Below, piece after piece: positions 31,512-58,978 of a DNA stretch of 64,000 nucleotides. The stretch spans positions 41,912,001 to 41,976,000 of the forward strand of contig CM060734.1 of assembly GCA_030704615.1 (NCBI GenBank), written 5' to 3'. How positions within the stretch are numbered: position 1 is the stretch's first letter; each line of letters opens with the position of its first letter. The DNA is from Takakia lepidozioides. Its lineage: Eukaryota; Plantae; Bryophyta. Below the pieces are notes generated by a model. That model ran no database searches and was not told where the DNA came from. It saw only the letters and a program-made list of their open reading frames with translations. The position numbers were made by a program, and so were the translations under genes.

Positions 31512-32085
31512 TTATTTGCCTTTGATAAAGTTGTCAAAGACTTTTCGGTCATTTGCATCAAGAACATATGTGTTTGACTTGACATTGTACTTTAAACATG
31601 CTAACGCGATAATGGAATCCAAATCAACCATCATGTTATCCGTCAAATCGTACGTATAGACCCCTCCTCGAATTTTTTGGTACCATGCTAACCCAATCTC
31701 CATATGAGAAGGACGCTCCAATAAATCAACAGAATCCCTACATTCTACAAACCGCTTATTGATATTCTTCCGCATTCTTTAAACCCTGCCCAAATACCAA
31801 GTGCCTTTGGTTGCTCCTCTGCAGGTTTTCCCTGGTCTACCTTTCCTGTTTGTAGTTTGGATCGCAGTCTCCCCATCAACAAAAAATACAGCACAATCCG
31901 AACCCAATCCCAAGCTCGTGGCTTTGTTGCTGGTAGTTGGTTTGTTTTCTCGGCAAAACAACATCGATGCACTTCTTACTCGTGTCAATCTATCCTTGGA
32001 TAGAGTAGGGTTGCCATTGAGTTGGCTAACCAAAGTGCTTTTGAATATGGTCTTCCTGTCTACTTTGACAAATGGAACCACTGCC
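31512..32085 (-). pseudogene. C-terminal remnant of the TIR element's own ORF (frameshifted)
   Basis: AVVPFVKVD..KSTLVSQLNGNPTLSKDRLTRVR..WYLGRV..FDNFIK, nearly identical to part of ORF 48700-49575. Confidence 0.8.
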
Positions 32086-33439
32086 AAATGAAACAGGTCA
32101 AACCAGAAGGTGCCCTCAGGCTGAAATACGTTGAAGAAGGTACCTTTCATCAGCAGTGCCTTGCTTTATCAATTGCGCTGTTGCCGCTACTGTTTCCAGT
32201 TGACCATCCACCCACATTGTCCCACCATTGACTGGGGTCAGAAAAGTGTCTCATTCCAAAGCTTCTCTTCATCTCTGTGGTGCTATTGTAGGGTGACTTC
32301 AATGCCCAAGTGGGCAAAGGGCTCCATCAGGACGATATCATTGGGTCTTCTGGTGAGGACGAGCTGAATTCTAATGGCAGACGGTTAATTAACTGTCTGG
32401 AAGAGCTTCAGCTTTTGACCTTGATTAACAAGACAAGAGGAGACCAAGTGCAGTGGACTCGTGAGAAATCCCAAACTGGGGAACGTTCCATTGTGGACTA
32501 TATCATAACGGACAAAAATTTGTTCCCCCAGTGTGCCAATGTGTTGATCGACAGAACTGATATTGGTACCTCTGACCACTTTCTGGACTGAGATCAAAAG
32601 GTGTTTTCCCAAGGCCAGAGTAGAAGAGATTCTCAAGGACCTGGACCTGGATCCGCAAGTCTTGACCCTGCTGGATAAATCAGACTTAGAGGCTGTAGTG
32701 TCCAAAGCCATGTCTATTGCCATGAGATTGTCTGATGAAAATGAAGTTAGGCATAAAACTTCCCTGAGCTTGTTTCTAGTCAGTGACATGGGGGAGGACA
32801 TCTTGGATGACCTCAAGGGTCCACCCACTCTCGGCACTAGACTGAAATTTAAACTCAGGGAAGGAAGCCTACCTTTGAACATCAAACAGAAGCAGAGAGG
32901 AAAGGGGGAGTGCACTCTCCCAAGTGAACCTGCATCATTCAGTTGGCAAGACCGTGTCTGAAAAATTGATCCATTTGAAGACACCACGGTGCAGCTGAGC
33001 ACAGCCTGACATGACAACAATTAAACATCATACTGAGACAAGAGAAGCAGTCAAGGACACAGTCATGCATATGGCAGCAAGTGATCACCCTTCAAACATG
33101 ATTGAAAACATACATGAGGTCAAAGGCAATAAGAAATCAGCGAAGGGTACTGCAGCTAACAGTTGGAGTGTCTTTAAAGACAAAGGGAAGAGAAAGAAAC
33201 ACTTCACTGGCAATGAGGGGAGGCTGTGGAAACGCCAAGAGGATGGCACAAATGATAGAAATAACAAGGCTGGGCAGAGGATCCTGCAGGAAGAAGAAAG
33301 GGTATGTCAGCATGGAAAGGACGTGCGGCTCATTCCAATAGAAAGGGGAACATTCGTGCAGTTAAGTACAACAACCAATTGCCCTTCAATTATGGCTGGA
33401 ATTTTCCAAAAGGCGAGGGATGATAAGGATGAGATTGTA

Positions 33440-36000: not shown

Positions 36001-38423
36001 GGGGGGACAGTTACCCCATGTGTAGATTTTGCTCGTCTTGTGTAAACTCTTGAGTACCAAATCCTTCAGATTCAGGACGTTCAGGTTCTGTACACTTAGG
36101 GGCATCTTGTCCCTCTGGCTGTTTGGATTCAATAAGGATGAGAATAGGCCTGATACAGTGAGTACAACCATTGTGTCACGCCACTCATTATTAGGAAAGA
36201 AAATAGGCCTAATGTGCTCATTACCTCTGATGACTGGGAATCTTGATGCCCATGTCCTCCTGTCATTGCTGCACAACAATCCGCCACCACACCCGCATAT
36301 CATCACCGATCAGCCCAGGCCTGCCCCACATTCCCGCGCACTTACTTCATCCCCTTCGATTCCTGCCCTCTACATACATCACAACCTCAAACCTTCTCCC
36401 AAGTCAGTGCCCTCACCACATTCTGGTGCCCTCACCACATTGTCCTACCCATGCCCTGTGGAGAGGAGGGGAGAGGAGAGGAGGAAAAAGAGAAAGCCCG
36501 CGGAAGGGAAGGCGAACGCGGGAGAGGAGGAGAAAGAAAAGAGAAAGCCGCGGGAGGTCAGGGGAGAAAGATCGTGGAGCGAAAAAAAAAAAAAAAAAAA
36601 AACAAACATACAAAACGACGATTCCACGATTCGATCCCAGGATGCATCGCGGCGGAATCGCCATTCTTACCACTACACTATCCCTAAAAACTCAACAACC
36701 CCCTCCTGTAAAATTATATTTAAGGTGTTTTAAACCCCCCTCTGTATGTATAATGTTGTACATGGGGGGGGTTTAAAATACCCCCTCCTGTGCACGCACG
36801 TGGCTGGTACATTTAATGAGGAGTGCACCCCCCGGGTCTGAAATCCAAAACCCTGTTGAGAACCAGTTATTGGCAAACAACTCAATGAACTGACTATGCC
36901 TCTCCTAGTAGGTCCCACCTCATTGGATCAGCTTGAAGATAATAGGCCAAATTGAAAAGCTGCAGTTGGTGTGTGCAGTCTTACAATTGCACCAACAAGA
37001 CAGAAAATTGTAGGACCCCGTTTATTGGTAATAATGGCTGTGAGGGAACGAAGCACAGTAAGGTGTATTGCCTTGAAGCATTTATAGATAGGGGAGATAG
37101 GGATTTTGTTTTTGTATAATGCATTGATACTGACATTGTGGATACCGCTTCTACCTCGCTTGTAATGCCAGCCGTGATAACAAATAATGGGCCGGTGTTC
37201 CAGCCTCTCTGGCGGATCGCAAGGATAAATGGTGCATATTTCTGTCGTTTTGTCTAGGGTGGAGGAGGTAGATAACGATCATGACAATTTGTAATTTCAA
37301 TGAAGTAGATGATAAGATTCGGGGATAAAGTGGCGGGTGGGGGGGTGTTGATGGGTAAGCCGTGGATAAGCAAGATGTCAGGGCATAGTTTGGCAGGACA
37401 AGTACAGGGATGTGAGTGGGGACAAGCACAAGGAAGTAGCCAATGCGGGACGGTGTGGTCTGGGGGTCTGCCTTGGTAGGCACTGGCATTAATGAGTGAG
37501 AACCATCTAGTTTCAGCGCGGTGCATGAGGAGTTTATGGATGTGCGAAATGGTGTGGTTATAACGGGTTATACGAAGTCCGTGAATGACCAGGTGGGTGC
37601 ACTGGCTGAGGAGCTAGGCCAGGTGTCCCGTTCCTGGTGGGTATGTGAACAGAGGGGGCAGTGTGGGGAAGGGAATAAATGTGGCCAAAAATGTGTTTGC
37701 GTTGGTGGCCCATATATTGAGCGTATCTGAATTTTATCTGAATTTTAATTAGCGTAATAATAGCTCTACCCCTTTTTCAAAATATTACTATTGTGGCCAT
37801 GGACACCATCACATGAGCACTAGTGAATGGGCCAATGTGCTATCCACGGATTAAGGTGAATAGTTTAGTGATAAGTTTGATGGTGTGTTGGAGCGTCAAA
37901 TTTTCCATGATACATGTGCATATAGTGAATGCCAGTTGCTAGAGCAGGTAGCCCAATGGTTGGGTGTTTGTGCCTTGTTTGTGCAGTGCATGACCTAGAT
38001 GATCTAGGGTTAAAGTGTCCATCTTCCAATGGAAGGCAGTAATCCTAGAGACACTAAGAATATAATAATGCACGACGCCTCCCTCCCGAAGGAAGTGTAA
38101 ATTATGGTGTCGAGCTTGACCCCCAAGGGCTACTTCCGGCAGGAAGGTGGACACCTTTGTGACACCAATCGGTGGATTGAACCCACAACCACTTCCAAGG
38201 TGGTATCTGCCCATTACCCACTTAAGGCTACAACTTATTGTTCTAGAGACACTATAATTTACACTTCCTTTGGATTTTGAATGCCAGATTTGAGTCATGT
38301 GCATCGGAACGCCTTCACGGCGAGGTTATTGAGAGGTTATTTTCTCCTCTCTCTATCAATGGGCCTGATTTGTGAGTTGTCGCTCCCAAGTGTTTCCCTT
38401 AAGAAAAAAAATAAAAAATCATG

Positions 38424-40457: not shown

Positions 40458-41291
40458 TCAGTCGTTGAGTTGAAAAATGTTTTTTGCCATTGCACTCGTG
40501 GTTGCTTTGTTGATCCGGGCTCTTTTTGCAAGTCCGCCCTCTTCTTCCAATTGTTGTTTTTCTTCCTCTTGACGTGTTGCCATCTCACTTCCTTCCTCCT
40601 CCATCGTGTCTGCCTCTTGCATGATTCCCAACGTTGTTTGCTCTTCGGGTGTCAAGTGTACAGTGTGTCGAATCATTTGGAGTAACAGGGGAGTAACTTT
40701 GGTAACCAAAACTTTCTTCTTCTTCTTTGTCAATCTTGTTAATTCTTGGGTTAACTTCTTCAATAAGAAACCTGCCCAATTCACGACTTGCCCATTGAGG
40801 CAAATCAACACTTGGTCGATTAGCTCGTTGGTGCAATAGCTGTGGTTTTGCCTGAGGCAAAGCAACGTGCTAAGTACCGGGGTTATCTTCTTAAAGCCGG
40901 GGTTATTGCTGTGACTGCATGTGTAGCCCTGATTGGCTTGGTTGAGATTCTTAAACAAGTCCGCAAGTACAAACCTTGGTGGTTTGCCGCTGTGCGCCGG
41001 TACGTCCAGACTGGGAAGGTGAAACACTTCCGTCAAGTACTTCTCCGTCAATAGAATATGTGTGTCACGGACATTTGTGCTTCGAGTGTTGGTGTTGTAA
41101 TTCTCCAAGAACTCCCTGCACAGCTCGTCGTGCTTAAGGTTCCAGTCCAGCATGGTGACAAAGTACCGCAGGCCAAGACTGTCCAACGTCTCCTGTGTCT
41201 CTGTGTCCTGCTTGATTTTCTGCAACGTCGGGCTGATTTTGAAATTCACTTGCACAAAAGAACTTGGTGTCTTCCGCTTAGTGCCCGCCAT
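40458..41291 (-). CDS. Extra sense ORF downstream of pol (resembles additional ORFs of Athila/Tat-type elements); probably continues, frameshifted, to ~39524
   Basis: ELCREFLENY..LTEVFHLP..VNWAGFLLKKL pattern, followed by E/Q-rich low-complexity sequence. Lies between integrase and PPT. Confidence 0.55.
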   Translation of the reverse strand: MAGTKRKTPSSFVQVNFKISPTLQKIKQDTETQETLDSLGLRYFVTMLDWNLKHDELCREFLENYNTNTRSTNVRDTHILLTEKYLTEVFHLPSLDVPAHSGKPPRFVLADLFKNLNQANQGYTCSHSNNPGFKKITPVLSTLLCLRQNHSYCTNELIDQVLICLNGQVVNWAGFLLKKLTQELTRLTKKKKKVLVTKVTPLLLQMIRHTVHLTPEEQTTLGIMQEADTMEEEGSEMATRQEEEKQQLEEEGGLAKRARINKATTSAMAKNIFQLND

Positions 41292-44200
41292 TTCCCTTAG
41301 TTTTGCTATTGCTAAAAGGAAATTGGAGCACCAATTCTTGTATCAAGAGCAGTATGAAGCACACTGGAAGTTGTGTAGATGGCAATTTCCAGTTTGCAGA
41401 AGAGGAGGTGTGGGGTTCGTTTATGGGTTTAAGTAGGGGTTCTCCTCTATGGGCTTCATCTCTAACTTCTCTCGAGGTTCTCGTGGAGGTAATTTTGTCC
41501 TGCTGTCCGCCTAGGTTTAAAGCGTAGTTAGCTTTAATTGTTGGGCCCGTGCTTACCAAGAAGCATTTAGCTTCTGGTAACGGTTTTGAGTAGACCTCGC
41601 CCCTTTTCTGGATGTGCCTGATTTTCTTCCGTTGGTGTTTTCTTCGTGGTTCGTCTTGGATTGGACTGATGGTTGTTGATGATTGTCTGATTTCGGTTGG
41701 TTTACGTTCATCCATTTTGGTATGTGGTATGTTTTTAGATGAGCGGCGTGTGCGCAGTACTTGCAGATTGGTTTAATGGCTTTGCCCTTATCATCCGCCG
41801 TCTTTTGGCAATCCGTTGGATTGCGCCGTCGTTCTTTCTCCATGTTATGATCAATGGTTAGTGGTGTATGATTACCACGGTCGGTGGGGTCATCTGGAGC
41901 GTACATCTTGGAGTTTAACACAAGCAATGACTCGTTGGCTGCTTCGTATTCGTTCACGGTTCTGTAGGGCATATGTGTTGGCCACGGTTCATCATACGGT
42001 ATACGGGGTGGTAGTGCTATCCTCCAAATGAATGGTGGTCTAAACGTAGCGGTGCCCTGAACTCGTATTGCCATTTGTCTTAGTACATGCCGATTCACCG
42101 TGTCGTAATGAATGTAGTATGCATCTGCGGTTTCACGCTCCTCATCTACAGTTTGGTCTTCCTCGTTGGCGTATAAGTCATGTATAAGGGCTCTGTCATG
42201 TATCCTTTTGTAGCCTTTTAACTTGTTAATATTTATTCGTCCCACGAATTCTTGTTCCAAGGTCTGCAAATCGACAGTTCCATTGTCATGTACCCTTTTG
42301 ATTTGAAATGGTCCCATCCATGGCATAATTTTCCTCCCAGTTTGATCTTCTTGATTTTTGGTAATCATAAAACAAATTCCCCGTCCTGGAAAGATTTTTC
42401 TTTCCCTTCGGATATTCTTTTTCTTCGTTGTTCTTGAATTCATGCCATGTTATCTGTAGCGTCTGCCCGAACTTCTTCCAGATGAAATAACTCATGTTCC
42501 CTGACTCGTAGAGTTTCTTCTAAACCCCATCGTTCATGAGTTCCGGTTCGTAGTGTGGGTATCATGCATTCAATGGGTAATAGTGCCTCTGCTCCATACA
42601 CCAGTTGAAATGGTGTATGTTTCGTGGTCACCTTGTATGATGGCCTGAATGCCCATAGTGTTGTGTTCATTTTGATGTCCCAATCTGTACGATTGGCATT
42701 TACTATCTTGGTTAAGATAGTGCATAATATCTTGTTGATAGATTCGGCCTGGCCATTTCCTTGGGGATAGTAAGCAATGCTCTTGCAATGTACGATCATG
42801 AACTCCTCCGTCAAGCATTTTATGGCATCATTTATAAAATGTGATCCTTGATCACTGATGTATTCCAGTGGGAAACCAAATCATGTGATGATGTTTTCAT
42901 ATAAGAATTTGGCTGTCGACCTGGCAGTGTTGTCTCTTAGTGCCTTGGCCTCTACCCATTTGGTAGTGTAGTTAGTGACTGTGAGGATGTATTGGTTCTG
43001 TGTGTACCTTGCTGGAGGTTCAATGTGTCCCACGAAGTCTAGTCCCCAACGTTGAAATGGTTCTGTTGGTAGTATTGGGTGCATAATACCCTTCCCAGTT
43101 CATTCTATTGGTCCCATCCTCTGGCAAACATCACACTGTTGACAGTGTTCATAAGTGTCTCCAAATACAGTAGGCCACCAGTAACCTGCTAATAATATCT
43201 TCTTTACTGTCAGGTCAGAACTGAAGTGTCTTCCTTCAATTCCTTCGTGTAGCTCTTGCATCACTGTTTTGGCTTGTTCTTTGTTCACACATCTTCTCAT
43301 TATGGAGTCAACTCCTCTTTTGTACAGAATTCTCTTGATCACTGTGTATGGCTTGCTTTTCATTGAAAGCTTTCTCCTGTCATCTTTGGTGTATTCTTCA
43401 AGAAATTTTCCTGTGTTCAGATAATATTTGATTGGCCATTGCAATCGTCCGGATCTTGATCTTGATTCTGAATGTCTTTTGATTCTTCCTTGGTAACTGT
43501 ATAAGCTCCAATACTGATATTGGCCAATTCTTGATTATTTGGCTCTTCGTTTTCATTGTCATCTTCTTCTTCTAGATCTGGCTCTTCCTCAATAATAGGT
43601 CCTTCACCAAGAGGTTCATCTTCATCTGATGAGTCCTCTTCTTCATCAGTGTCAGCCATGAGCTTAAGAGAATCTGGGAGGTCATAATCTCCTTGAAACA
43701 CTCCCAGAGTGTCTAGAGGATCTGTCTCTTCATCTTGTGCTTCTGGTTGAACAACAAACAGAAATGCGTCGGGAAGTTGATCTTCTACTCCTGTGGCTGG
43801 TTCTCCTGTAGTAATTTTTGACAGATGATCTGCTATAACATGTAATCTTCCTAGTTTATGAACAACTTCAAAATCATACTCATGAAGAAGTAATAACCAT
43901 CGAGCAACCCTGCCACCAGCTAGTGGTCGATTTGCTAAATGAACTAGAGCCTGATGATCAACAATAAACTTAAGGTGATTGCCAAGTAAATAATGCCAAA
44001 ACTTTTGAACAGCATAAATCATTGCCAATGGGAGGTGTGGGAGGTGTAGTGCCGGAGGGATCCTCGGATTTGAGGGTCAAGACTGCCACGGCGGTACCAT
44101 GGCAAGCTGTAGCTGCCAGGTTGATGGAGCTGCCAGCTAGGCCAGCCATAGAGCGCGCCATGGTGACACCTGGAGTTGTCATGTTGGACAACCAGGATGG

Positions 44201-45875
44201 CATTCTCTGTTTGAGTGGATCGGCAGGCAAGAGGTACCGGCCACTGCGGGTTTTGTTGGACTCCGGAGCTCAGCCATTGATGTTGGGCAGAGTTGCTATT
44301 GCAGGCTTGGGCCTCACGGAGGCGGATATGGAGCCTTGTCCTTTCCAGATACACACGTCTCTGGGAGGATCAGAGCAAGCTCGGGGCATGACACGGCGTG
44401 AGTTGGCTATCAGACTACAGCCGGATCATCCTACAGATGGCTCAGTGATGAGAGCCAAGGCCATTGTGACAGACGCGGTCTCGTACAATGTCCTTGTTGG
44501 TGGGGTAGTGTTGTACCCCATGGGCTTCACCCTGGATTTGTGGGAGGAGTCAGCTTCCTATAGGCCTGCATGGCAATCAGGGGAGGGCCGGCGTGTGCAG
44601 CTCCCTGTGACGTTCATAGAAGGAGTTGCGGTTGCCCAGCGAGGCAAGATGTCGACACTAGCAGCATTCACCGGCAGTGAGTTGGCCTGGAGAGTTGCTT
44701 GAGGGCAACGCTCATTCAGAGGATGTGCCACCTCCGGGAGAGCAGGATGACATGTATGGTATGGCGAAGTTGCCTACCATGGTTGCTCAGACTCCATTGT
44801 GGGGCACGAGCAAGGATTTGCAGCGGGATGCTGATCGACGGGTGCAACAAGCCTGGGTGGAGGCTTTTGTACCGTCAGGAGAGGAGGAGAGTGCGGGGAT
44901 TGCACCAGGACCACCTCAGTTGTCTCCATTGGACACCACACCTATTGTGTGGCAGTATCCGGATGAAGGCATTTGTCTTCTGGACTTGTTTGGCGGGATC
45001 AGCACCGGATTGGCTGCTGTGTTACAGGCAGGTGTACGAGTTTGGCGTTACCTGTATGTGGAGAGGGATGAGACTACACGACGCATCGCACTCCGTCATA
45101 TTGCTTAGTTGGTGCAGCAGTACCCTGAGTTATCGCCGGTGTCTGCGGTTCGTGGATATCAGCAGGCCTTGCTAGCAGACATCTCTTTGTTGGGGGCGGA
45201 GGATTTGGAGCGGGTTGGCTTCATTGATTTGGTAGTGGCAGGTTGGCCCTGCCAAGGGTATTCATCAGCTGGGCATGACAAATGGATTGCGAGACTCGAG
45301 GTCAGGTCTGTTTTGGGAGATGGTGCGGGTTTTGCGCCACTTACAGCTTCATCAGGCTGTATCTCCAGCATACATCTTGGAGAATGTGCCACTGATGGGC
45401 GATTCTCGGGTCAGGGTGATGGCAAGTATGCATCAAGTCCGGTCGTGGCTTGGGTCAGCAGTGTTGCTGGATGCAGCTGCAGTGGGGTCACGGGCTCATC
45501 GTCCACGGTTATGGTGGACTAACTTGATTCCACCCGCACTGCTTAAGCGTGCATTTGATGGGGTGCAGCGGCCAGCACACCTAACAGTGGATAGCATTTT
45601 GGACACAAGGAGGCAGTCTCAGCGTGTGAGACATGATGACCGTTTGCCTTTGGCAGTGGTCAACAAATTGGGTCAACCACGAGCAGCACTACCTACACTG
45701 CTCAGCTTCCTAGGATCGCATGCTTTCCGGGATAATGGACCTGGCCTCCTGTGGGATGCTCAGTTGCAGCAATTAGTGGAGCCTAATGCTGACGAGCGAG
45801 AGCGGGCTATGGGTTTTTCCACTGGGACCACGGCGGTGCCTTCTCTTTCTGAGGCATCACGTCGTCAGGTGTTGG

Positions 45876-48800
45876 CCCGGGGGGTGCACTCCTCATTAAA
45901 TGTACCAGCCACGTGCGTGCACAGGAGGGGGTATTTTAAACCCCCCCATGTACAACATTATACATATAGAGGGAGGTTTAAAACACCTTAAATATAATTT
46001 TACAGGAGGGGGTTGTTGAGTTTTAAGGGATAGTGTAGTGGTAAGAATGGCGATTTCGCCGCGATGCATCCCGGGATCAAATCGTGGGATCGTTGTTTTG
46101 TTTGTTTTTTTTTTTTTTTTCGCTCCACGATCTTTCTCCCCTGATCTCCCGCGACTTTCTCTTTTCTTTCTCCTCCTCTCCCGCATTCGCCTTCCCTTCC
46201 GCGGGCTTTCTCTTTTCCCTCCTCTCCTCTCCCCTCCTCTCCACAGGGCATGGTAGGACAATGTGGTGAGGGCACTAGATTCCCAGTCATCAGAGGTAAT
46301 GAGCACATTAGGCCTATTTCCTTTCCTATAAATGATTGGCGTGACACATATTGCTAATGACGCTTCCGTGGGTTCCAGGGCTGAGCATCCTTTCAGGCCC
46401 TGGCCTGGAAATGAAGCCTGCCTGAGGCAAGTTTTTGCAAAAGATGGATTGTTTGCAATACTGGTAAGAATTTTGGAGAGTGGACCACCATAGAAGGCAT
46501 AGCTTTTTGTGCTGATGGAGTTTAGGGTTTGATTTGTGCAGCAGCTCTGCTGCTATCTTTTTTGCCAAGTGGCTGCCTGCGAGGGGTGGATGCCGCTTCG
46601 AGTTGCATAGGGTCCTGATTGCTGATATGGCGTTGGAAGGCACCTCTATTGCCCGCAACTTGCAAGTGATCACTGGGGGGGAGAGTTTGGGCCAAAGAAC
46701 GGAGATCTTGGGATTGAGCACTTGATTGTTGTTGTTGCACTGGAGGGAGACCCTGCCATTTGACCCTCTAGTTTGGCTGCCCAGTGGCAGCTTGGATGCT
46801 GGAGAAAGTTTTCTCTTTCCTGTTGGGCAATCCACCTTAATGTGGAGCATTTGGCTGCAGTTGAAGCAAACTGCTGAAGAGCAGTCTTCGATTAGACGCA
46901 CTGTGAAAAAATTTCCCTTATTGTCTGTAGGAAGTCTCACATACTCAGGCAGAATGTCCTGAGCTCCACTAGCTCCGCAATCTATCGACACCTGTTGTCT
47001 TTTGGTTTTCCATGAATCGCAGGTGCGCCCAACATCCTTTCTTTTGTGTCCAATGTCCATAGATAAATACATATGGCAGTTTCGCCGCTCCTCCGTATTC
47101 TTCCGTCACTGAGTGTAGCAAACGCATTTGTAGTTCAGTTATAACTGCTGCCCCCCATACATTCTTCCCTTCACTGCACGTGGTGCTCATGCTTGACGTT
47201 TCATGGGTATGTTCTCCAGTGCTCGTCGTGTATGTTCTACTTTCGCCGTTTAGGGTTGCATTTCCGCTTGTGAGATTTATCCTTGGTTGCCTTCTCGTTC
47301 TTCCCTTGTGTAATTAGGCTCTTCACCAGTCTGAAAATAATACCCTTCTGCCTTCAAATGCACCTTTTCTTTACATCTTTCAGATCGTGTTTGAACCATG
47401 TTGATTCGGGACAGGTCTCTCTCCTCATTCACCATATGTCGCAGCTCCTTGCCAACCAGCATCCCTCGGCAGATATTCCATGCTGCCATCATGTTGCTCC
47501 ACTTACTCGTATCTTTAGTTGTAGTGACAGTTGCTTGGTTCGCCGTTGTGTTTGCAGCCCGAACATCATCCCACACCTGCTCAGCTGCTCTTCTGCTTAC
47601 TGGGTACCCCTGTTCCCTTCTTGTGATCTCTAGCATATCCCAATTAGCAGTAAGTGACCTCCTTGTGCCTCCCTTCCTTTTGCACTTGCACCGTATTACC
47701 CTCCTTTCACATACAAGGACTATAGTTTCCTTCCCTTGCTTGTGTAATTGCTGATTTCTTCAAAAGAAAGTTGTTTCATTGCCCCTAAGCAACTCACTGT
47801 ATCATGCCTATTCTCCTCCTTATCATCCCTCGCCTTTTGGAAAATTCCAGCCATAATTGAAGGGCAATTGGTTGTTGTACTTAACTGCACGAATATTCCC
47901 CTTTCCGTTGGAATGAGCTGCACGTCCTTTCCATGCTGACATACCCTTTCTTCTTCCTGCAGGATCCTTTGCCCAACCCTGTTATTTCTATCATTTGTGC
48001 CATCCTCTTGGCGTTTCCACAGCCTCCCCTCATTGCCTTTGACCTCATGTATGTTTTCAATCATGTTTGAAGGGTGATCACTTGCTGCCATATGCATGAA
48101 TGTGTCCTTGACTGCTTCTCTTGTCTCAGTATGATGTTTAATTGTTGTCATGTCAGGCCGTGCTCAGTTGCACCGTGGTGTCTTCAAATGGATCAATTTT
48201 TCAGACACTTGCTTGCCAACTGAATGATGCAGGTTCACTTGGGAGAGTGCACTCCCCCTTTCCTCTCTGCTTCTGTTTGATGTTCAAAGGTAGGCTTCCT
48301 TCCCTTAGTTTAAATTTCAGTCTAGTGCCGAGAGTGGGTGGACCCTTGAGGTCATCCAAGATGTCCTCCCCCATGTCACTGACTAGAAACAAGTTCAGGG
48401 AGCATTAACACGCATATCCGAGTTCGAGGCGAATCCAAAAGGACCCAAGTTCTCTAGAGCTCACAAGAAACAAGAACACATATGGTAGGTATCCCCCTTG
48501 CTGATTTGTCCGACTTTTCTACTGTCCAATCGGATGATTGCATTGTGGACGCTTTGAAAACTGGATTTCTAGAAGCGCAACTTTTATGCCATAAACTTGG
48601 GATGAAACCAAACAAAGCAACATACATCACGGTAAGTCATGGTAACTTTTGGTAACTTGGTAACTTCTGGTATTTACTCCTGGTAAGTTCTTCTGGGCTA
48701 TGGATTGGTGGAATGAGCCATGGACAATTGAGAGACAAATGGAGGCGGAGCTATTCAAAAGCATGGAAGAGGAGGGTGATGATGTCGATGCCATAGATTC

Positions 48801-49863
48801 TATTTGTCCTCTTAATGCAGACACACATATTCAAAATGAGGTCGTGGAAGATGAATTGGTGTGCGGGCCTTCGAATTCAATGGAGGATGTTTTGAGCCAA
48901 CCTTTGGATGATCATGCGGAAGAGGTACTTGTTCAAAGTGAATTGAGACATACTCTGGATGCTGTCATTGATGAGTTTGAACAAGAGAAAGATGGATCGA
49001 AGGCAGTGGTTCCATTTGTCAAAGTAGACGGGAAGACCATATTCAAAAGCACTTTGGTTAGCCAACTCAATGGCAACCCTACTCTATCCAAGGATAGATT
49101 GACACGAGTAAGAAGTGCATCGATGTTGTTTTGTCGAGAAAACAAACCAACTACCAACAACAAAGCCACGAGCTTGGGATTGGGTTCGGATTGTGCTGTA
49201 TTTTTTGTTGATGGGGAGACTGCGATCCAAACTACAAACAGGAAAGGTAGACCAGGGAAAACCTGCAGAGGAGCAACCAAAGGCACTTGGTATTTGGGCA
49301 GGGTTCAAAGAATGCGGAAGAAAATCAATAAGCGGTTTGTAGAATGTAGGGATTCTGTTGATTTATTGGAGCGTCCTTCTCATATGGAGATTGGGTTAGC
49401 ATGGTACCAAAAAATTCGAGGAGGGGTCTATACGTACGATTTGACGGATAACATGATGGTTGATTTGGATTCCATTATCGCGTTAGCATGTTTAAAGTAC
49501 AATGTCAAGTCAAACACATATGTTCTTGATGCAAATGACCGAAAAGTCTTTGACAACTTTATCAAAGACAAATAATTTTTTTAATTAATTTGTTAGATTT
49601 TATTATGTTTTAAATGAATAAATTCGATATAATATAAAAACATACATATACATATTGGAGGGTTATTTTTAATGATGAAAAATGAGAATATACATACATA
49701 AGGGGGTACTTTCCAAAAATTGTAATTTTTTGTATATTTACACGAGGGGATTTTATAATCTTCAAAAAGTATGTACTGAGGGGGTATAAATTATCCAAGG
49801 ACCCGTATATTAGGCGACGAACGCATGTGATACGCACAGTTTATAAAGAGTGCACCCCCCGGG
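45876..49863 (+). mobile_element. Unclassified TIR DNA transposon, copy B, inserted in DNMT motif X
   Basis: Termini CCCGGGGGGTGCACT...AGTGCACCCCCCGGG with 8-bp TSD GGTGTTGG (45868-45875 and 49864-49871). Removing it restores the DNMT reading frame. Confidence 0.94.
48402..49575 (+). pseudogene. 3' part of the TIR element's ORF (putative transposase C-terminus; open stretch 48700-49575, 291 aa)
   Basis: Long ORF abutting the right arm in both copies. Upstream decayed coding sequence LTRISEFEANPKGPKFSRAHKKQEHIW. No catalytic DDE core is present, so the transposase call is positional. Confidence 0.55.
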
Positions 49864-50595
49864 GGTGTTGGGGCAAACAATTGATCTAAATTGCTTGACG
49901 TGGATTATCAGCTTGGCTATGGCTGAGCAACAAAGAGTGCGGAGTGCACTTCCCTTGACGGTCTCTCTGCCTACCGAGACGGTACAGGCAGTGAGTGGAG
50001 GCGAGCTGGTGAGGACCACAGGGTGTAGACATCCATGGCACACGTGGGAGGTGCTCGAGGTTCAGAGGGAGTTGGCAGCCAAGGCGGCTGTGATGGATGA
50101 GGTTGGGGATTCTTCTCGGGTTGAGGAGGTCCTCAAGGATGAGATGATGGGGCAGGATGAGGCCTTGTCATTGATTGAGCAGGTAGGGAGTACTGCTCAA
50201 GAGGTTGCGGCATAGCAACTACGGGACGCGTCCTCTACCTCTAAGTCTGCTGGACTTAAGGTTGCAGTTACGAAGGGCGATTGGGAGCCTGACATTGGAC
50301 CTATTGTCACTAGAGGAGAGAGACGACGTATACGGCGGTTCCTGAGGCTTACAGGAATTGCTTTGCCTCTCATGCTATGGTGGAGGAGCATGAGAGACAT
50401 GTTCAGGTTGTGCATCGACCGGGTTTGGTCATCAGGGATGCGGATGGATTGAGTCGCAATCCATGCACGAGCCAGCAAGATGACACTGGAGTTCGGTGGC
50501 ATGGTGAGACGGACGAGGAGATGGTGCCGGGATGGCATGCATCTGCCTTTTTGTGTATCTTGGCATCGGGAGGTTAGGTTGGACCTACAACAGGG

Positions 50596-52097
50596 ATGAC
50601 TGTAGACGGAGTGTCTGAGGACCCTGAGGCTAGTGATGAGCCAGGTGGTGCCAGAGATATATATGAGGATTCGGTTGTGTTGGACTACCTCCGCACTGGA
50701 GACACGACAGCTAGTGTGACTGCCAAGGAGAGGGATCGGATCCTACAACGAGCCAAGAGGTTCAAGTGGGAGGGGATACACATGCTTCGAGTGTGGGAGG
50801 ATCGGGTGAGGATCGTGCCTCACCCAACACAGCGTGCACGGTTAGTGCGGCATGCCCATGAGGAGTTGGGGCATTTTGGAGTGCGACGCACTCATAGTTT
50901 ACTGCAGGGGCAGTATTGGTGGCGTGGTATGCACACAGAGGTACAACAGTTCGTGGCTAGGTGCACGGTGTGTGACAGGGTGCGTGCTTCATTCAACGCC
51001 CCTACACCACAGTTGCATCCTTTACCCATCATGGGATTGGGCTACAGGTGGAGTCTTGACTTCGCAGGGCCTTTGCCACTGACGATGCGTCACCACAGAT
51101 ATGTGTTGGTGATGGTGGAGCACTTCTCCAAGTGGATTGAGTTGGTTCCATTGCCCGAGGCTAGTAAGGGGGCTACGTATGCATTCCTGGATCGTGTGCT
51201 TAGCCGATTCGGTGCTCCAGCTGAGGTACTCACGGACCAAGGGAGAGAGAGAGTTCTTGGGGGAGTTTCAGGCTTTGTGTGATAAAGCCTTGATAGACCA
51301 CCGTACCACTTCTCGGGATCATCCTGAGGCCAATGGCTTGGCAGAGAGGGTGGTGCAGACGGTGAAGAGGGGTTTGCGCAAGTATGGCTTGCAAAAATGA
51401 CACCTAGGAGATTGGGATCTTCAGGTACCTTGGCTAGCCATGGGCTACAGGTTTAGCAAGCAAGCATCACTTGCCTCCTTCTCACCATATTTTCTTCTCT
51501 TTGGCCGAGAGCCAGATTTGCCTGCATCTATTCGCAGGGAGGCTGCAATAGTCCTCAACTGATGATCCGGATGTGTGGACACAAGCATGTGCCCAGCGGG
51601 CAAAGTTGTTCAAGAGAGTCATGCATATGGCTTTTGAGAATCTTGCTATTGCCCAACACCGAGACACATTGAGGTATGTCATTATACGTGGAGGGGGATA
51701 TCGGCCAGGTGTTCGGCGTTTCCACCCTGGGGACTATGTGTATCTGCAGCAAACAGCGCCTACGACCTTGGATATCACAGCAGGACGTGTGATTCTAAGG
51801 GTCAGGGAGGTGTTGCCTTCAGGAGTGTTGATTCTGGAGGGTCGAGATGGCATGGTATGGAAGGACTATGTGCGTAATTGTGCGCCATGTCACCTTCCAC
51901 ATGTGGATGAGAGGATAAATCCCAACCTTGCAGTGGTACCTGCAGGATTGCGTTGCATGCTATGTGGGCATGCTCGTGGTGCCGCCACTATGCTGGTGTA
52001 TGATCGATGGTCGAGAGGTTGGCACATGGGATGCTTGACACCACCTCTTGAGAGGGTTCCTGATGGAGATTGGTTATGTCCACATTGCTTGGGATAG
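50596..52097 (+). pseudogene. Gypsy integrase with C-terminal PHD finger (frameshifted)
   Basis: HHCC zinc finger and DDE core, then CMLC..(Y)DR(W)..WHMGCLTPPLERVPDGDWLCPHC at ~51954-52089, a C4HC3 pattern with two Cys mutated. Confidence 0.88.
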
Positions 52098-52356
52098 TGG
52101 CAGTGGATATGACTAATGGCAGCTCACAAGACATGGGAGGCCAAGCTCATAGGAGTCAATACCCAAGATCTCAGGCTCAAGTTCACAGGTTGCAAGACGG
52201 CGACTAACGATGGGGCAACTCTTGTACCCGGCCTCTTGATCTATTGAGTTTGAGTGTAGTAGGGACAGTGGTGGAGGAATTAGTGAGGCTATGACCACTA
52301 TCACATCTTGTGGCTACCTGAACTTAAAGGGACCTAAGCGCCAGCTAGGGGGCGAT

Positions 52357-52502
52357 TGTGATGGACTAGTGGCTGCACTAGTGGTGGCTAGTGGCAGCCT
52401 AGTGGTGGACTAGTGGCTGCACTAGTGGTGACTAGTGGTTGCACTAGTGGTGACTAGTGGTTGTTTAGTGGCAGCCTAGTGATGCACTAGTGATAGATTA
52501 GT
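52357..52502 (+). repeat. Start of the 3' LTR of the DNMT-Gypsy element, composed of CTAGTGG tandem modules
   Basis: TG follows a purine tract; about 11 imperfect CTAGTGG units spaced 10-13 bp apart. Confidence 0.6.
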
Positions 52503-53010
52503 GTTTGGTGTGTACATATGTTGTGTGGTTTGGACAGCGATGTAGTTGTGTAGCGATATGTATGCGCACGACAAATCCATTTTTGTGAGTTGTGTGTGGT
52601 TTATGGTTGCAATATGAGTACTTTGACAATATTGTGTCATTCTTGTGTGTTCTTTCAGTTTTACAGATTTCAGTCTTTTAGTTTACAGCTACATTTTCAG
52701 CCAGTCCCTCAGATTTTCGGCCAATCCCTCAGTTAATCAGCCAGTCTCTCACTTAATTTTTCAATGCAGATTTATCTACTACAATATCTATGAAATTTAA
52801 TTCATCCAAACATATAATTTACTATTACTATTGTTCAACATCTCTTAATTCGACGTTTCATTGCCTTGTACATTGCTTGTTTGTGTTCTTATAAGATTTT
52901 CAAAATCTTCTAATTTGGCTAACCTCCATTAATATTATTTTCTGTTATAATACAACTTGAACCTTAATTCAGTTTTTTTACAACTTTATTTTTATATCTA
53001 ATTTACTCTC

Positions 53011-56000
53011 TTGGATACAGAGATAGACTTAATATTACAATATCAGGATTTGCATCGTGTACACGATTACCATTATGTTGTTGGAGACTGTTTATTTGAT
53101 TCGGTTGCTTATTTGCTGCATTATGAAATATCATCTACAGATCTCCGTCGTCAAACCATGAAACATTTTCTGCAAACTTTACAATTGCCCACTGATGAGG
53201 TGGCCGAAATGATTCAAATCCACTTTTCTTCGGACGCCCTCTATGAGTTACGTGGTGTTCGCACAATTGATGAATTTGTTCAACAAATGTCCAAAAGTGT
53301 TGTTTGTGGAGGTTTAGAAGGTGATAATCGTGCCATTTTTTGTTTAGCAAATTATTTACAAAGACCCATTCGGTTATGGTCTCGAGTAAATAAAAGAATA
53401 ATGTTTTCTGTGGGTGATCAATTTGTTGTGCATACCCCTCTCCAACTACTTTATGACGATAGACACGCTACGAAGAGTGGGCACTTTGAATCTATTATTT
53501 TTAAAAGAACTCATTGCACTTCAAATGTTATGCCATCGACCTCGATTTCAAATTCTCAGTCGCTTTCAATTTCGGGATTTGCAACATCAGTACAACCTTC
53601 TTTGATATCACAACATGTCACTATAAAAAAGGGTCAACAACAAAATGATATTATGAACAACACCAATGTAACCCCGAAAACACCTTGTTTTCAATGGCTA
53701 CCAACTCATGATGAACACATATTCAATTTGATGGTCGAGTTTCCGTCGTCCACTCTCAAAGACATAGCACAGATCTTCTCCCATCATTATGCAACTTTGA
53801 ATATCACATTTACTCAAATTTATTCTCATTTGCGGTGAATTAATTTAAAAAAAAGTATATAGCAAAACAAAATACACCGCAAATTGATTCTCCCATTGCT
53901 CCTGAAAATTCAGTCCAACCAATACCTCTTCATTCATTGCATCATTCCAACAATAATCCCATTGAAATTCATGTCAACTCTGCTCATCGCAGTAAATACA
54001 TAGAAAAAATTGTCTGATACACTAGTGCATCCATGTATGTGTTGTCATTGACTATGTTTAAAAAAATAAATTGTTACACCGACAAACAAATTGTTAAAAA
54101 AAATAGCCGTGTATATTCCTATTGTAACAACGGAACAAAATCATGGACAAATGTTTATATGTCGAAGTTGTAAATTAATGCTTGACCACGATAAATCTCC
54201 TAAATATGTAGTTCCTAACATAATTCATCTAAATGCTTATATTAATAATGTTCAAAACCTCAATGCGCTTGAGGAAAGATTAATTGCACCACGTATGGCA
54301 TTTGCCCAAATATATCAATTGCAAGGTTATGGCCAATATGGTATACGTGGTAGCATTATAAACGTTCCATCAAATGTTAACAATACACTATCAGTTTTAC
54401 CTCACATGCCGAATGACAATACTACCATTGGAGTACTTTTAAAACGTCGTCTGGAATATAAATCTCCATATTTATCAGGAATTGTTCGTCCCAATTTTAT
54501 TATGTTGGCTTTACATGATCTTGTTACTACTCCATTATACATAGAAGCTAATGTTACCATTCGACCACAATGGTTAGGATTATTTACATTGTCCCATCAA
54601 ACAGAACAAAATTGTATAAATATCGATGGACCATTAGAAGAATTTAATGAAATATCTCAAGATGAGTTTGAGGAAGTTGTCGAAAATACTACTAGTGATA
54701 CTCTGGTACAAAATATCCTCATTTCAAATCAAATACAAGTATTTCATGATGGTCTATTAAGAGTAGCTCTTTCTCAAGACTTTAAACCATTAGGTCTTTT
54801 CCAAGATACTCATAGTGAAGAATTGATTTTCCTACTTTGTTTTTTGGACATCCTCGATCAAACACTGGTTCATTGTCTTATCAAGCCATTGCACAATGGG
54901 AACAATTACATAAATATCATGATTTCACGAGACATATTCCAAATCTTTTTTTTAAAGCTATCAAAGTACTAATTCATGGTGTTACATCATCTTCATGGAT
55001 TCGGATCTAGGCTATAGGGATTTGGAAAGATTACGAACATTGCCAAATTATTTGGCTCGTCTCCGGAAAGAGGCCTTTGCAATGATTCGACAACTAGGAC
55101 CACCAACTTTTTTTGTCACATTTACAAGTGCAGAAAGTAGATGGTCATCTTTACTGCAAACCATCCATTCGCTCAATCATAAAAAATTGGGAATTCCAAA
55201 TGACATTCAAAATTTGGAAAGTAAACACGTTGCTGAATTGGTAAGATCGGATCCCGTTACATGTGCTCGATATTATGATCATCGAATGGGTGCATTTAGA
55301 CATCTATGTATGAAAGATCATACCATTTTTTGAACACTCCGTGATTTCTTCTTTGTAACGGAATTTCAAAGCCGAGGCAGTGAGCATGATCATGGTATGT
55401 TATGGATAGCTAATGCACCAATTTACGGGGTTGATAAAAATGATATAATTGAACAATTCGTAGATAAATATATAACATCCGATAGTAATGTTCTTCCACC
55501 CATTCTACGTGAAGCTCAAACCCATCAGCACAAACGAACATGAGGAAAAAGAATCAAGCTATATGTCGTTTTCATTATCCATTGCCCCCAATGAATTCTA
55601 CCGCAATTTTGGAACCTTTAACAGAACAATTAAACAAACAACAATTGATGCATTTGAATCAAATATCAACTGTAATATTTACTAAGTTGGACAAAATGGA
55701 TATGGGTTTAGATATTACATTTAATGAGTTTATTTTATTTTTACATATTGATGAAAAAACATATATAGCTGCTTTACGTAGTAGATTACACAAACCAACT
55801 TTATTTTTAAAAAGAGCATGTAAAGACATTTGCACAAACGCATTCGGCATACATGCGGGTCCACTGTGGCAAGCTAATACTGATGCATAGTATATTCTTG
55901 ATCCTTATGCAGCAGCTAGTTACATCTTATCTAACTAAAATAGATAAAACTATTACTAATGAATTTCGCACAATCATAGAAAAATATAATTCAGAAAAAA

Positions 56001-58978
56001 TTGATGCAAATGTCAGAATCCATTATCGGGAACAACTTTTATTTTTTCATCCATTTGTGGGAAGCGAAGAATCACAAAAAAAAAGGACCATGATATCGCG
56101 ATGTTCGTTATAGTGCACATACCTAATAATATACGATTTTTGTCGTGGTTTTATATTACTTCTATCTGCATTATAATCTGCTACATATTCACTGATACTC
56201 AAGTGATGTAATGTAGTTGGTTGCTCAATATATTTATCAATAATAGACGAACATTTAATATTTGTGGACTCGGGTGGAAGACCTCGCAAATCTTTATCGG
56301 ATTTCAATACAAATGCACGTTCTTGCGGAGATGATGTATTTATGAATTTGAAAGTTCTTGATGCGTGATATAGTGGTATGGATAACACAATATATGCAGC
56401 CAATTGAGCCGACATTTGTTGTGCATTTAGGAAAATATTTCCCATTTATGCTTATTTGGTTCATAAACCAACTATATTGATGATACGTGACAAATTCATA
56501 TATAAGTTCCTAACAGAAAACACTACTATTTCAGATTGGAATACATTAGAGACAAAAGCATACGAATTAGCAAAAACCAACAATCTTAGTGTATGGATGG
56601 ACAAGTTCATTGATGTTGATATAGAACCAAACGTTTTTGAGTCTCTGACAGATTGCACAGGGATTGAAACATATGACATAACAACATAATTTCATTTGCG
56701 TCCTGAAATTGGATTGTCAACAACAATACCGGAGGCAAACATATCTACAACACCTGACAATATTATTCCTAATAAACAATTTTATGAACAGCTGCGAAAG
56801 CTTAATCCAGAACAACGTACAATTTTCGATGACTGCATACACAGAAAACAGATGTTTCCTGACAAACCCTTGCATTTGTTTCTAACTGAGGGAGCAGGAA
56901 CTGGAAAAACGTTTACTTTACTTATTATTATTCAAGGTCTGCTTAGATTTTATAATAAACATCCACAATCTGACCCACTTAAGAAAAAAACAATTCTTAT
57001 GGCTTACACTAGCAAAGCAGCCTTCAATATTGATGGAACAACCATTCATTCTGGGCTAAGCATACCTCTTAATTGCAAAGATTTGCCTTCCCTCGGATCA
57101 GAACAATTAGACACGTTGGTAAAATCATTTGATCAACTACAACTTATGGTGTTAGATGAAGTGTCTCTTGTGGATAACATGATGCTTATGTTTATTAATC
57201 AACGACTACGATCAATTAAACAAATTCATGGTATTTTCTTTGGTAATATTGATGTTATTATTACTGGAGATTTTTCGCCAGTAAGAGATTCGTGGGTTTT
57301 AAAGAAAAAACTCGGAAGTCCTGATGCTTTAGTTCCTGGTTTTTGGCAGGATTGTGTTAAATGTTACGAACTTACTCAAGTAATGCGTCAATCAGATAAT
57401 GAATTTATTGGCATACTCAATCGACTACGAACAGCAACAACAACCCAACACGATATTAATATTCTAAATCAACAATGTTGTCGCCCTCCGCCAAACAATC
57501 CAGCATTTCCACATTTATATTATACCAACAAAAATATGTTAATTCATAATCACAAAGCATTTGAGCAAATTAAAGGATTTGTATATATTTTTGAAGCTAT
57601 TGACAAATACCATGATACATGTCCATCTACTTTTAAGCTCTTGGACAGTGCAGCCAACACGGCCGGCTTACATACAACAAAAGAGATGTTAATTGAATTA
57701 TGTGCAGGAAATTATGCAACTCATGATGGTCTAGTAAATGGGGCGGATGGTATATTTAAACATACTTCCGTGTTAACAAATTCAACCCCTTTAATATGGA
57801 TACAATTTAACAATCCAAAATCTGGTGTTGCTACACGTGCAAAAAATATTCACTTATATAACTCAACAATAGGTAAGTTATGGACTCCAATTCAACCAAT
57901 TTCTAAGGAGATTCAAATAAGATCAAATACTTCACATATAATTACTAGAACCCAATTTTCTATTCAATTAGCAGCCGCTCGAGCATCGTTCTCAAGACTT
58001 AACTTTGGACTATCTAGCATTCGATCCTACAGGGGTATATAAACATGGTTTAAGCTATACAGGTTTGTCACGCATACGTAACAAAACTTATACCTCTTAG
58101 CAAATTTGCAATTGAATAATTTTCATGTTGACAATGGGGTTGCCGAGGAGATGCACGTCTACATACAAGCGCACAATGGCAGTTACTCGTTCCAACTTTG
58201 CACATATACAAACAATCACATGTAATTATGCAGCACTTGAATACAAGATCATTGTTATTACATAAAGAAGATGTTTTTGCAGACCACAACTTACAAACGG
58301 CTCATATTTTATGTTTTAGTGAAATGCACTTCAAACCTAATTCCAATATAAATCTGTTTATGGATTCCACAAAATATTAATATATCGCTGTACATGGTAG
58401 TCATGGCACCATGATGTTATATGACACAACAATGTCCTTAGTATCTCATGAAGTGTTTTTCATTCTCTGATGCTGAATATATAATGGCCACTTTCAATAA
58501 AAATACAATAAGAGCTATTCATGTAGTTACTATTTACAAACCTCCATCACTTTCTATATCTATATTTTTGTCTCAACTACAAACAATTCTTCATAAAATA
58601 CCACATTTCTGTCCCACCATTATTATAGGGGATTTCAATATAATATATTACGAAATGATTCAACCATGTCAAAACAATTGCTACAATTCATGAGGATGTT
58701 CAATATGACACTTCAATTCATGAAAACTACTACAATATATGATTCGCAGTTGGACCATATTTGGACAAATACACCTAACCAACAATGTATATCGAGAGTT
58801 GCGGAGGCATATTGGACAGATCACAAACCTATATATATAGCTTTCAATCTACCAAACCATGTTGTTAAATATCATCATTCTACAATATAGCATGTAAAAT
58901 ACTTCGTTACACACTCCACATTGGAGGGTGGAGCCATTACACACTCCACATTGGAGGGTGGAGCCATTATGCGTCTAG
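53011..58978 (+). mobile_element. Decayed Helitron/Helentron: OTU-like protease, Rep (HUH), PIF1 helicase, AP endonuclease
   Basis: OTU GDCLFDSVA..GHFE; LEERLIAPR..G.IINVP; Rep PTFFVTFTSAE, FVTEFQSRGSEHDHGMLW, TSYLTK; helicase GAGTGKT, GTTIHS, LDEVS, GDF, LTQVMRQ, GLVNGADG; EEP LCFSE, IYKPP, IGDFN, LDHIW, TDHKPI. 3' hairpin followed by CTAG (58975-58978). AT-rich compared with the flanks. 5' end not resolved. Confidence 0.9.
58907..58969 (+). repeat. Duplicated 30-bp hairpin unit at the Helitron 3' end
   Basis: TTACACACTCCACATTGGAGGGTGGAGCCA occurs twice; each copy contains a CTCCAC...GTGGAG stem. Confidence 0.85.

Follow-up and report, generated by a model that had tools for sequence, protein, structure and literature searches.

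The stretch of DNA analysed here, hereafter the window (64,000 nucleotides of the Takakia lepidozioides genome, contig CM060734.1), contains a dead member of a Gypsy family in which a DNMT3-like DNA methyltransferase (DNMT) sits between the protease (PR) and the reverse transcriptase (RT). Gypsy elements with a DNMT have already been published from Klebsormidium (2018); new here is a conserved stop between DNMT and RT in one branch of the family, which stands in a putative read-through context. As the best explanation of the whole we lean towards a leaky stop behind the DNMT, which would give abundant Gag-protease-DNMT and rare RT-RNase H-integrase-PHD. Family identity and architecture as described below we regard as nearly certain.

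The coding parts of the window copy all lie on the plus strand. The 5' end is truncated, Gag is not present in the window copy, and near 44028 the element adjoins another truncated Gypsy, which is on the minus strand and DNMT-less. The end of the Gag-protease spacer and the protease (44029-44620) are followed by a PR-DNMT linker (44662-44940), with a frameshift near 44625-44668, and by the DNMT from motif I to the start of motif X (44941-45875). The motifs named in the preliminary description were all found on this strand: LLDSGAQ at 44253, FGGISTG at 44989, GWPCQ at 45241, ENV at 45380, AHRPRLWWTNL at 45494 and ERAMGF at 45800; the damage it reported for the DNMT, one stop (45106) and one frameshift (around 45270), was also found. 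A Pfam search of the protease piece gave no match, and the assignment is based on 44-57% identity to relatives, some of which match Asp_protease_2. Both DNMT pieces matched Pfam DNA_methylase, with E-values of 3.7e-4 and 8e-4 that are under the curated cut-off.

The DNMT is interrupted in motif X (RRQVL|GQ) by a 4-kb DNA transposon. The limits first given for this insert, 45876-49871, are exact. They span an element (45876-49863) bounded by 15-bp terminal inverted repeats and, behind it, one of the two copies of its 8-bp target duplication GGTGTTGG, which lie at 45868-45875 and 49864-49871. Judged by the length of this duplication, we take the insert to be hAT-like; its 291-aa ORF had no match in Pfam and Atlas scores that were all below 0.9. 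A second copy of the transposon is located at 31208-36836 of the window.

Behind the insert, positions 49864-50212 hold the second copy of the target duplication, the remainder of motif X and the C-terminal tail of ORF1 (Gag-PR-DNMT), which ends at a conserved in-frame stop in the TMV-type context TAG CAA CTA (50213-50221). ORF2 starts (50222-50366) with a spacer and an N-terminal stub of the RT (WEPDIGP...RRFLR, approximately 50280-50366), with no ATG ahead of the stub. The segment 50367-50437 comprises the junction of an internal deletion and, from approximately 50390, the tail of RNase H. Around 1.25 kb, covering RT and most of RNase H, is absent from the window compared to the related locus L056 (blastn), residues ~50-475 of ORF2 of locus L049 have no counterpart in the window (tblastn), and, in other copies, loose ends at the junction read as RT and RNase H sequence. 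The RT/RNase H remnants described earlier are thus real as far as the RT stub and the RNase H tail are concerned, but the RT core is absent. The integrase (50824-51950) consists of an HHCC zinc finger, a DDE core and a C-terminal part, with several breaks, and has a PHD finger at its C-terminus (51954-52088), two cysteine ligands of which are gone in the window copy. In Pfam, the window matched Integrase_H2C2 (6e-17), rve (2e-9) and PHD (2.5e-6). A 3' non-coding region with an 11/22-bp tandem array (52098-52500) leads to the terminal repeat B (52501-52573), which is 78% identical to B of L038 and L005 and ends in GCACGACA, the 3' end of the element. The end had been placed at 52502; the match to repeat B and loose ends at 52573, from where other copies run on into repeat A, move it to 52573, and B-A junctions seen in relatives support B as a terminal repeat. 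Protease, DNMT, integrase and PHD follow each other in the order first described, and the Gypsy domain order is retained as protease, RT stub, RNase H tail and integrase. Since Gag and the ~1.25 kb of RT/RNase H are missing, the PR-DNMT linker and the integrase have further frameshifts and stops, and the PHD has lost two cysteines, the description of the copy as lightly damaged is true for the DNMT only.

Relatives in Marchantia, Calypogeia, Sphagnum and metagenome loci retain the full set Gag-PR-DNMT-RT-RNase H-integrase-PHD and therewith the Ty3/Gypsy order Gag-PR-RT-RNase H-integrase. Among 80 relative loci, which come from few assemblies and include duplicates, a protease was found upstream of the DNMT in 56 of the 61 with room for it, an RT downstream in 50 of 56 informative loci and a PHD behind the integrase in 19 of 22. 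The PHD of an intact relative was matched against the PDB. Complete elements were found at six loci (five distinct insertions); they have a size of 8.95-9.67 kb, TGTCA...GACA ends and a 4-bp target duplication, a 5-bp duplication being found in none of the six. TG...CA ends with a short target duplication are therefore present in relatives, the window copy being 5'-truncated. Two identical full LTRs are not the rule: the 5' end has A alone and the 3' end B-A-B, and complete relatives with such A-coding-B-A-B split repeats are L038, L053, L064, L067 and L073, whereas the window retains a single B. With regard to a tRNA primer binding site, the only trait looked at was a TGG start behind the 5' repeat A, which was seen in none of five loci. 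For the DNMT of the window copy, an origin as one-off chimera or separate insertion has virtually no probability left and found no support, as the DNMT sits at one and the same place in relatives from liverworts, mosses and metagenomes, and complete elements share termini and target duplications; the DNMT is a standing part of the element. The branches of the family differ, with fused, stop-split and relocated versions of the DNMT: fused branches have several single ORFs of 2135-2374 aa, and one branch puts the DNMT between RNase H and integrase. A tree of RT plus RNase H, built without outgroup, was poorly resolved. None of 27 pattern matches in viral contigs was a relative.

The element's DNMT is DNMT3-like in sequence and predicted fold, as had been proposed from its motifs. 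A profile of the family DNMT searched against the PDB retrieved DNMT3A/B/C first, the top chains with 84-89 bits, while DRM (44-51) and HhaI (40 at most) scored lower; the predicted structure (pLDDT 90.7) had DNMT3A/B/C as top Foldseek matches with a TM of ~0.7. Motifs I-X are unrearranged, and PC, ENV and RxR are present, as in the DNMT3 family. The preliminary description had made purifying selection across copies a test of its reading, and dN/dS of the DNMT was indeed low: 0.135 for L049/L050, ~0.10-0.14 for the window versus the large subfamily and 0.12 for L062 versus its own subfamily; inside decayed subfamilies it amounted to 0.35-0.53. Intact relatives, whose existence had been held possible, do exist: both ORFs of L049 are free of stops.

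In one branch of the family the DNMT and the RT are separated by an in-frame stop followed by CAR, often as the full UAG-CAR-YYA, which is a type I read-through signal according to the accessible text of PMC5382211. Of 42 anchored loci, 37 (35/40 and 2/2) share the position of stop plus CAR; as a control, CAR followed 28 of 767 random stops and CARYYA none. The window is outside the loci of the anchor script, and its stop was read directly. The full CAR-YYA is present in the window, L056, L016, L048, L049, L050 and L071, even though the peptides ahead of the stop differ and synonymous sites are almost saturated; UAG, CARYYA and an in-frame downstream ORF occur together in the window, L049, L050, L056 and L048. 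In L052 and L059 stop plus CAR is off-frame, and in L057 the motif is not present. TAA replaces TAG in 7 of 35 loci, TAC and TAG TAA in one each. In other branches, the stop was found in 0 of 17 loci, and no shared stop between Gag and protease was seen in nine loci of the fused subfamily. In one protein cluster, 12 of the 15 members listed end at the same residue behind the DNMT and none continues into the RT. In a tree of element DNMTs only, the rows with the stop or such an end form one branch of 30 without a fused member (support 86, FastTree only), with P0058, P0059 and P0203, labelled as ending behind the DNMT, falling outside. Since the stop at 50213 is common to relatives, it is not damage. 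As to variation at the stop within the host species, it is only a weak sign that positions 50213-50219 do not occur among the 40 rows listed, with 241 more in the table. The proposal of one polyprotein pairing a methylation writer with a chromatin reader is not supported in that wording for the window's branch, as the stop parts the DNMT in ORF1 from the PHD in ORF2; by established retroelement biology, cleavage by the protease would part the two anyway (PMC6317226, accessible text).

Most moss copies are decayed (stops make up 1.2% of codons), as would suit an old inactivating mutation spread in a non-autonomous subfamily. This origin of the stop is very improbable and largely refuted by L049, whose two ORFs of 1369 and 1047 aa lie in one frame, are joined by TAG CAG TTA and are otherwise intact; moreover, the stop is common to subfamilies only ~50% identical in the DNMT, and dN/dS is low for RT, RNase H and integrase behind it (RT 0.05 for L049/L050). 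As judged from the stop context, the stop is probably passed by read-through. Other ways past the stop, be it Ogre-like splicing, a pol transcript of its own or re-initiation, would each still leave the DNMT at Gag level; we consider them unlikely. TAG does end in AG like a splice acceptor, Ogre elements have an intron between Gag-PR and RT (PMC6317226, accessible text), and the public Marchantia and Sphagnum gene models P0007, P0008, P0015, P0026 and P0040 join DNMT to RT. However, the 45 nt upstream of the stop are not T-rich (18-33% T versus 28% in the coding region of L049), splicing leaves CAR-YYA at +1 to +6 unexplained, and P0008 and P0040 each leave out the stop at another point, which is what artefacts of gene prediction would look like. 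Tca2 has a promoter at the junction, and its stop, which resembles read-through, may not be one. A second start is opposed by ORF2 of L049, which has no Met for 116 codons, its first being residue 117, within conserved RT sequence; but in the largest subfamily CAA CCC, off consensus at +6, follows the stop with an ATG next, two codons behind the stop, and this subfamily may therefore use re-initiation.

With read-through of the conserved stop, ribosomes would mostly stop behind the DNMT and make much Gag-protease-DNMT, and read-through at a few percent would give RT-RNase H-integrase-PHD; the DNMT is thus likely made at Gag level and RT, integrase and PHD by read-through only. The DNMT would be built into the particle at about the level of Gag and be freed by the protease. 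New cDNA might then be methylated ahead of integration, so that a new copy would arrive pre-marked, and the PHD may tether the integrase to H3 tails unmethylated at K4, by analogy to chromodomains in chromoviruses. Whether cDNA is the main substrate of the DNMT we see as evenly balanced. Alternatively, abundant DNMT could act mainly on chromosomal DNA or be a structural or decoy protein with a minor catalytic role, damping its own family or competing with host DNMT3; we give this a lesser but real chance. Output at Gag level would far exceed the need of one cDNA, and self-restraint to the benefit of the host was offered as an option by de Mendoza et al. (PMC5890265, accessible text). CpG depletion of the element did not exceed that of the DNMT-less Gypsy next to it (0.52-0.56 versus 0.60), CpG observed/expected separating the element neither from this neighbour nor from a host gene, and the lack of additional CpG loss counts for this alternative, as does the frequent EC for PC in fused branches (8 of 25 new proteins). 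Against it, the catalytic Cys, ENV and RxR are maintained across branches, and fusion of the DNMT to Gag would favour packaging. DNMT at Gag level is not needed family-wide, as other branches have no stop and one has its DNMT between RNase H and integrase. The furthest-reaching picture is only tentative: a bryophyte-wide clade with a captured DNMT3 in the capsid precursor and a leaky stop of plant virus type could place hundreds of DNMT molecules in each particle, every new copy might be fully methylated and then be brought into silent chromatin by the PHD-guided integrase, and in high-copy hosts the enzyme might add to the host methylome.

Why retrotransposons keep an enzyme that silences them has been an open question since 2018. 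The earlier hosts, Symbiodinium and Klebsormidium, are hard to work with; Marchantia polymorpha, which has the family in many copies with proteins annotated as hypothetical, is a genetic model. The stop predicts a packaged DNMT at Gag level and RT and integrase at a few percent, and the fused, stop-split and relocated DNMT versions offer a natural comparison inside the family. These elements may also inflate the number of DNMTs counted in bryophyte genomes. Split repeats combined with DDE integration would escape paired-LTR finders, which may explain the absence of the family from plant surveys. In the openly accessible literature, no paper on the family in land plants or on its stop was found; the trees of two later papers may include land-plant copies, since these papers speak of "streptophytes".

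KnitGypsy-Dnmt3 of Klebsormidium nitens (de Mendoza et al. 2018, PMC5890265, accessible text) shares the Gypsy domain set, a pol region with an unrearranged DNMT3-like domain, evidence of purifying selection and, as the relatives here, DIRS-like split repeats A-coding-B-A-B. Its host is an alga, whereas the hosts here are land plants, and its DNMT is in one ORF with RT and RNase H (peer-review file), like the fused branches here but unlike the stop-split branch of the window. A PHD is not mentioned in the main text of that paper. Protein searches returned no Klebsormidium protein among the relatives, and shared descent is therefore suggested by structure only. In yeast, no methylation was obtained with the Klebsormidium enzyme, a result that the authors call inconclusive; SymbioDIRS-Dnmt3 methylates CG de novo in yeast (PMC5890265, accessible text). 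The latter also has a DNMT3-like domain and split repeats but, unlike the family here, a tyrosine recombinase, no DDE integrase and a dinoflagellate host. EpiLTRs (bioRxiv 10.64898/2026.05.21.726589, accessible text) likewise combine an LTR element, a methyltransferase and a chromatin reader, but these are a DNMT4-sister enzyme, Dam and a chromodomain, and the authors set them apart from streptophyte Gypsy-DNMT3. Chromoviruses (Tcn1, Chlamyvir), found in mosses and algae, also have a reader at the C-terminus of the integrase, which is a chromodomain instead of a PHD; their survey demanded paired LTRs, which split-repeat elements do not have, and its accessible text contains neither PHD nor methyltransferase (PMC6317226).

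MuLV, SIRE1 and Tca2 are known to have an in-frame stop between ORFs, with read-through in MuLV and SIRE1. SIRE1 uses CARYYA. Type I read-through in TMV has UAG followed by CARYYA and an in-frame downstream ORF, as here (PMC5382211, accessible text). The stops of MuLV, SIRE1 and Tca2 are located at gag/pol or pol/env, whereas the stop described here lies between a captured enzyme and the RT, with protease and DNMT on the Gag side.

All motifs claimed in the preliminary description, those of the methyltransferase (DNMT) and the LLDSGAQ of the protease, were found on the + strand, in the order claimed, in a Gypsy copy that ends at 52573. Pfam searches of this copy gave weak matches for the DNMT pieces (E 4e-4 and 8e-4) and clear ones for integrase and PHD finger. 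The interruption of about 4 kb proposed there proved to be a DNA transposon (45876-49863); it has terminal inverted repeats and is flanked by an 8-bp target duplication. Damage to the Gypsy copy goes beyond the "lightly damaged" state described before: Gag is missing, near 44028 the 5' end adjoins a truncated Gypsy on the minus strand, and some 1.25 kb of RT and RNase H sequence was lost in a deletion near 50367-50437. The 3' end aligns with the relatives' terminal repeat at 78%, and at 52573 sequencing-run contigs from other copies diverge. The interrupting transposon has a second copy at 31208-36836, 83-100% alike in blocks and with its own 8-bp duplication; no transposase was recognisable in either. 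The first copy holds a 303-aa ORF of unknown family (48664-49575), and the second is broken up by frames of a LINE-like RT and endonuclease (about 33639-36065). The truncated Gypsy (40458-44028, minus strand; RNase H tail and integrase) stands head to head with the DNMT element and has an extra 294-aa ORF without Pfam match after its integrase (40458-41342, minus strand). Directly behind the DNMT element lies a Helitron-like remnant (53002-58042) with Pfam matches to an OTU-like protease (E 1e-4), DUF6570 and PIF1 helicase. An intronless serine acetyltransferase gene (25773-27188, minus strand; best named match Physcomitrium) grouped in a quick tree with Physcomitrium and Sphagnum (SH-aLRT 99), sampled liverworts and vascular plants being outside, which makes a moss the likely host.

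The DNMT element is real, a family trait, and belongs to a known kind. The longest unbroken DNMT piece retrieved 64 proteins of 351-2000 aa with up to 72% identity over the whole query, with named matches in Marchantia polymorpha, Calypogeia fissa and Sphagnum, and searching with a profile added 33 longer proteins, of which 26 were new. The family is highly repeated in one sequencing run, since 29,866 contig records fell on a 2.8-kb 3' part of the element, which is no copy count and comes from a run that may be the window's own source. A metagenome scan covered 34 of 64 parts, and the best 80 of 320 confirmed yielded loci with the order Gag-PR-DNMT-RT-RH-INT-PHD. The protease preceded the DNMT in 56 of the 61 loci with enough room, RT followed it in 50 of 56, and a PHD followed the integrase in 19 of 22; these 80 loci are not independent cases, since few assemblies supplied them and some insertions are present in duplicate. 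A one-off chimera, a separate DNMT insertion and a lack of purifying selection, named beforehand as what would refute the reading, were not borne out. In a second architecture the DNMT directly precedes the integrase (database proteins P0043, P0044, P0049, P0050, P0060 and P0209, the last with RT-RH-DNMT-INT-PHD); these form a single branch together with P0053 (support 98).

The family profile ranked DNMT3A/B/C first among structure chains, next DRM, and next HhaI and DNMT2, and the predicted structure of an intact DNMT domain (pLDDT 90.7) best matched DNMT3A/B/C. The family retains the catalytic Cys, ENV and RxR; EC replaces PC in 8 of 25 new proteins, mostly those with DNMT and RT fused in one ORF. 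Most fused elements have GWECQ for GWPCQ (loci L058-L080; proteins P0048, P0201, P0203-P0209), and PC is kept by the branch with a stop between DNMT and RT. DNMT dN/dS was 0.135 for the loci L049/L050 (protease 0.11, RT 0.05), about 0.10-0.14 between the window copy and the large subfamily, with dS near saturation, and 0.35-0.53 inside decayed subfamilies (RT 0.37-0.42).

The in-frame stop of the window copy, at 50213, reads TAG CAA CTA. A stop followed by CAR occupies the same site before RT in 35 of the 40 loci that anchor to the large subfamily, as it does in 2 of 2 loci of a distant one; the exceptions among the 40 are L052 and L059 (off-frame), L045 (TAG TAA), L030 (TAC) and L057 (without the motif). 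The full CAR-YYA occurs in the window, L016, L048, L049, L050, L056 and L071. In the control, 767 stops taken at random from these loci, CAR followed 28 times and CARYYA 0 times. UAG-CARYYA is described as the tobamovirus-type read-through signal (PMC5382211). L049 has two stop-free ORFs in one frame, of 1369 aa (Gag-PR-DNMT) and 1047 aa (RT-RH-INT-PHD), with TAG CAG TTA at the junction and no Met in the next 116 codons. Many database proteins stop 96-207 aa past the ERAMGF motif, and in one cluster 12 of the 15 members listed share the same last residue. In the DNMT tree (FastTree), 30 rows with the stop or such an end form one branch with zero fused members (support 86); three further rows with such ends lie outside, and the other branches are fused (stop in 0 of 17 loci) or have their DNMT placed after RNase H and before integrase. 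In P0026 (Marchantia model Mp_2g26090) the peptide CSVATI, shifted by one base, is compatible at protein level with the end of ORF1 in P0004 and TAG CAA C-A behind it.

Beside the established anatomy, conservation and stop context, we infer that the stop sets the DNMT at Gag level and leaves RT, integrase and PHD to read-through. Most ribosomes would halt behind the DNMT, so that Gag, protease and DNMT come in equal numbers, while the products encoded past the stop would depend on read-through; in MuLV, read-through is described at about 5%. Bypass of the stop by splicing or re-initiation seems unlikely, and the Met-less stretch of L049 speaks against it; the large subfamily, mostly TAG CAA CCC ATG, may possibly have switched to re-initiation. 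In its loci (L003-L055) the read-through context has lost its A at +6, and ATG follows right after. Under the read-through reading, the DNMT would be packaged along with Gag and then freed by the protease, the likeliest substrate being new cDNA, as in the model proposed in 2018 (PMC5890265). Against this stand a CpG loss in the element not greater than in compared sequence, the Klebsormidium enzyme, for which no activity was demonstrated there, the precedent of Tca2, where a stop that looks read-through may not be, and the existence of fused branches. A DNMT role other than on cDNA seems rather unlikely to us. A single polyprotein pairing writer and reader had been envisaged, but in the stop branch the stop lies between DNMT and RT and, therefore, DNMT and PHD would be on different products.

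In the structure comparison set, the PHD of an intact copy was closest to the fingers of CHD4, PHF12, PHF21A, KDM5, ATXR5 and UHRF1, which read H3 tails unmethylated at K4. This PHD would steer integration; it occupies the position at which chromoviruses have a chromodomain. Retrotransposons fused to a PHD, and elements with a DNMT plus a reader, have been published from other groups (including 10.64898/2026.05.21.726589). What is new is that the family extends to land plants, that its split-repeat ends come with 4-bp duplications and, most of all, that the stop is conserved, its leakiness being predicted from its context; the literature searched, which left most subscription papers outside, describes neither these elements in land plants nor the stop (also drawn on: PMC12344493, PMC6317226, PMC10952607, PMC2194720, 10.1101/2021.11.30.470311, PMC6453930, PMC11244446, 10.1101/363937, PMC11096116).

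At the 5' end of complete relatives stands a terminal repeat unit A of about 300 nt, at the 3' end B-A-B, where B and A are separated by two bases. L049 differs from these A-B-A-B copies: its ends (1-120, 9170-9317) are G+C-rich, and a search for direct or inverted repeats of at least 50 nt found none in this contig, which may stop inside the repeats. Six loci (five insertions) start with TGTCA, finish with GACA and have 4-bp target duplications; therefore, complete copies are inserted like DDE-integrase elements, yet their repeats are DIRS-like. The same repeat layout is reported for KnitGypsy-Dnmt3 of Klebsormidium (de Mendoza et al., PMC5890265), and this likeness in split repeats, drawn from the published description, ties the family to a known kind.
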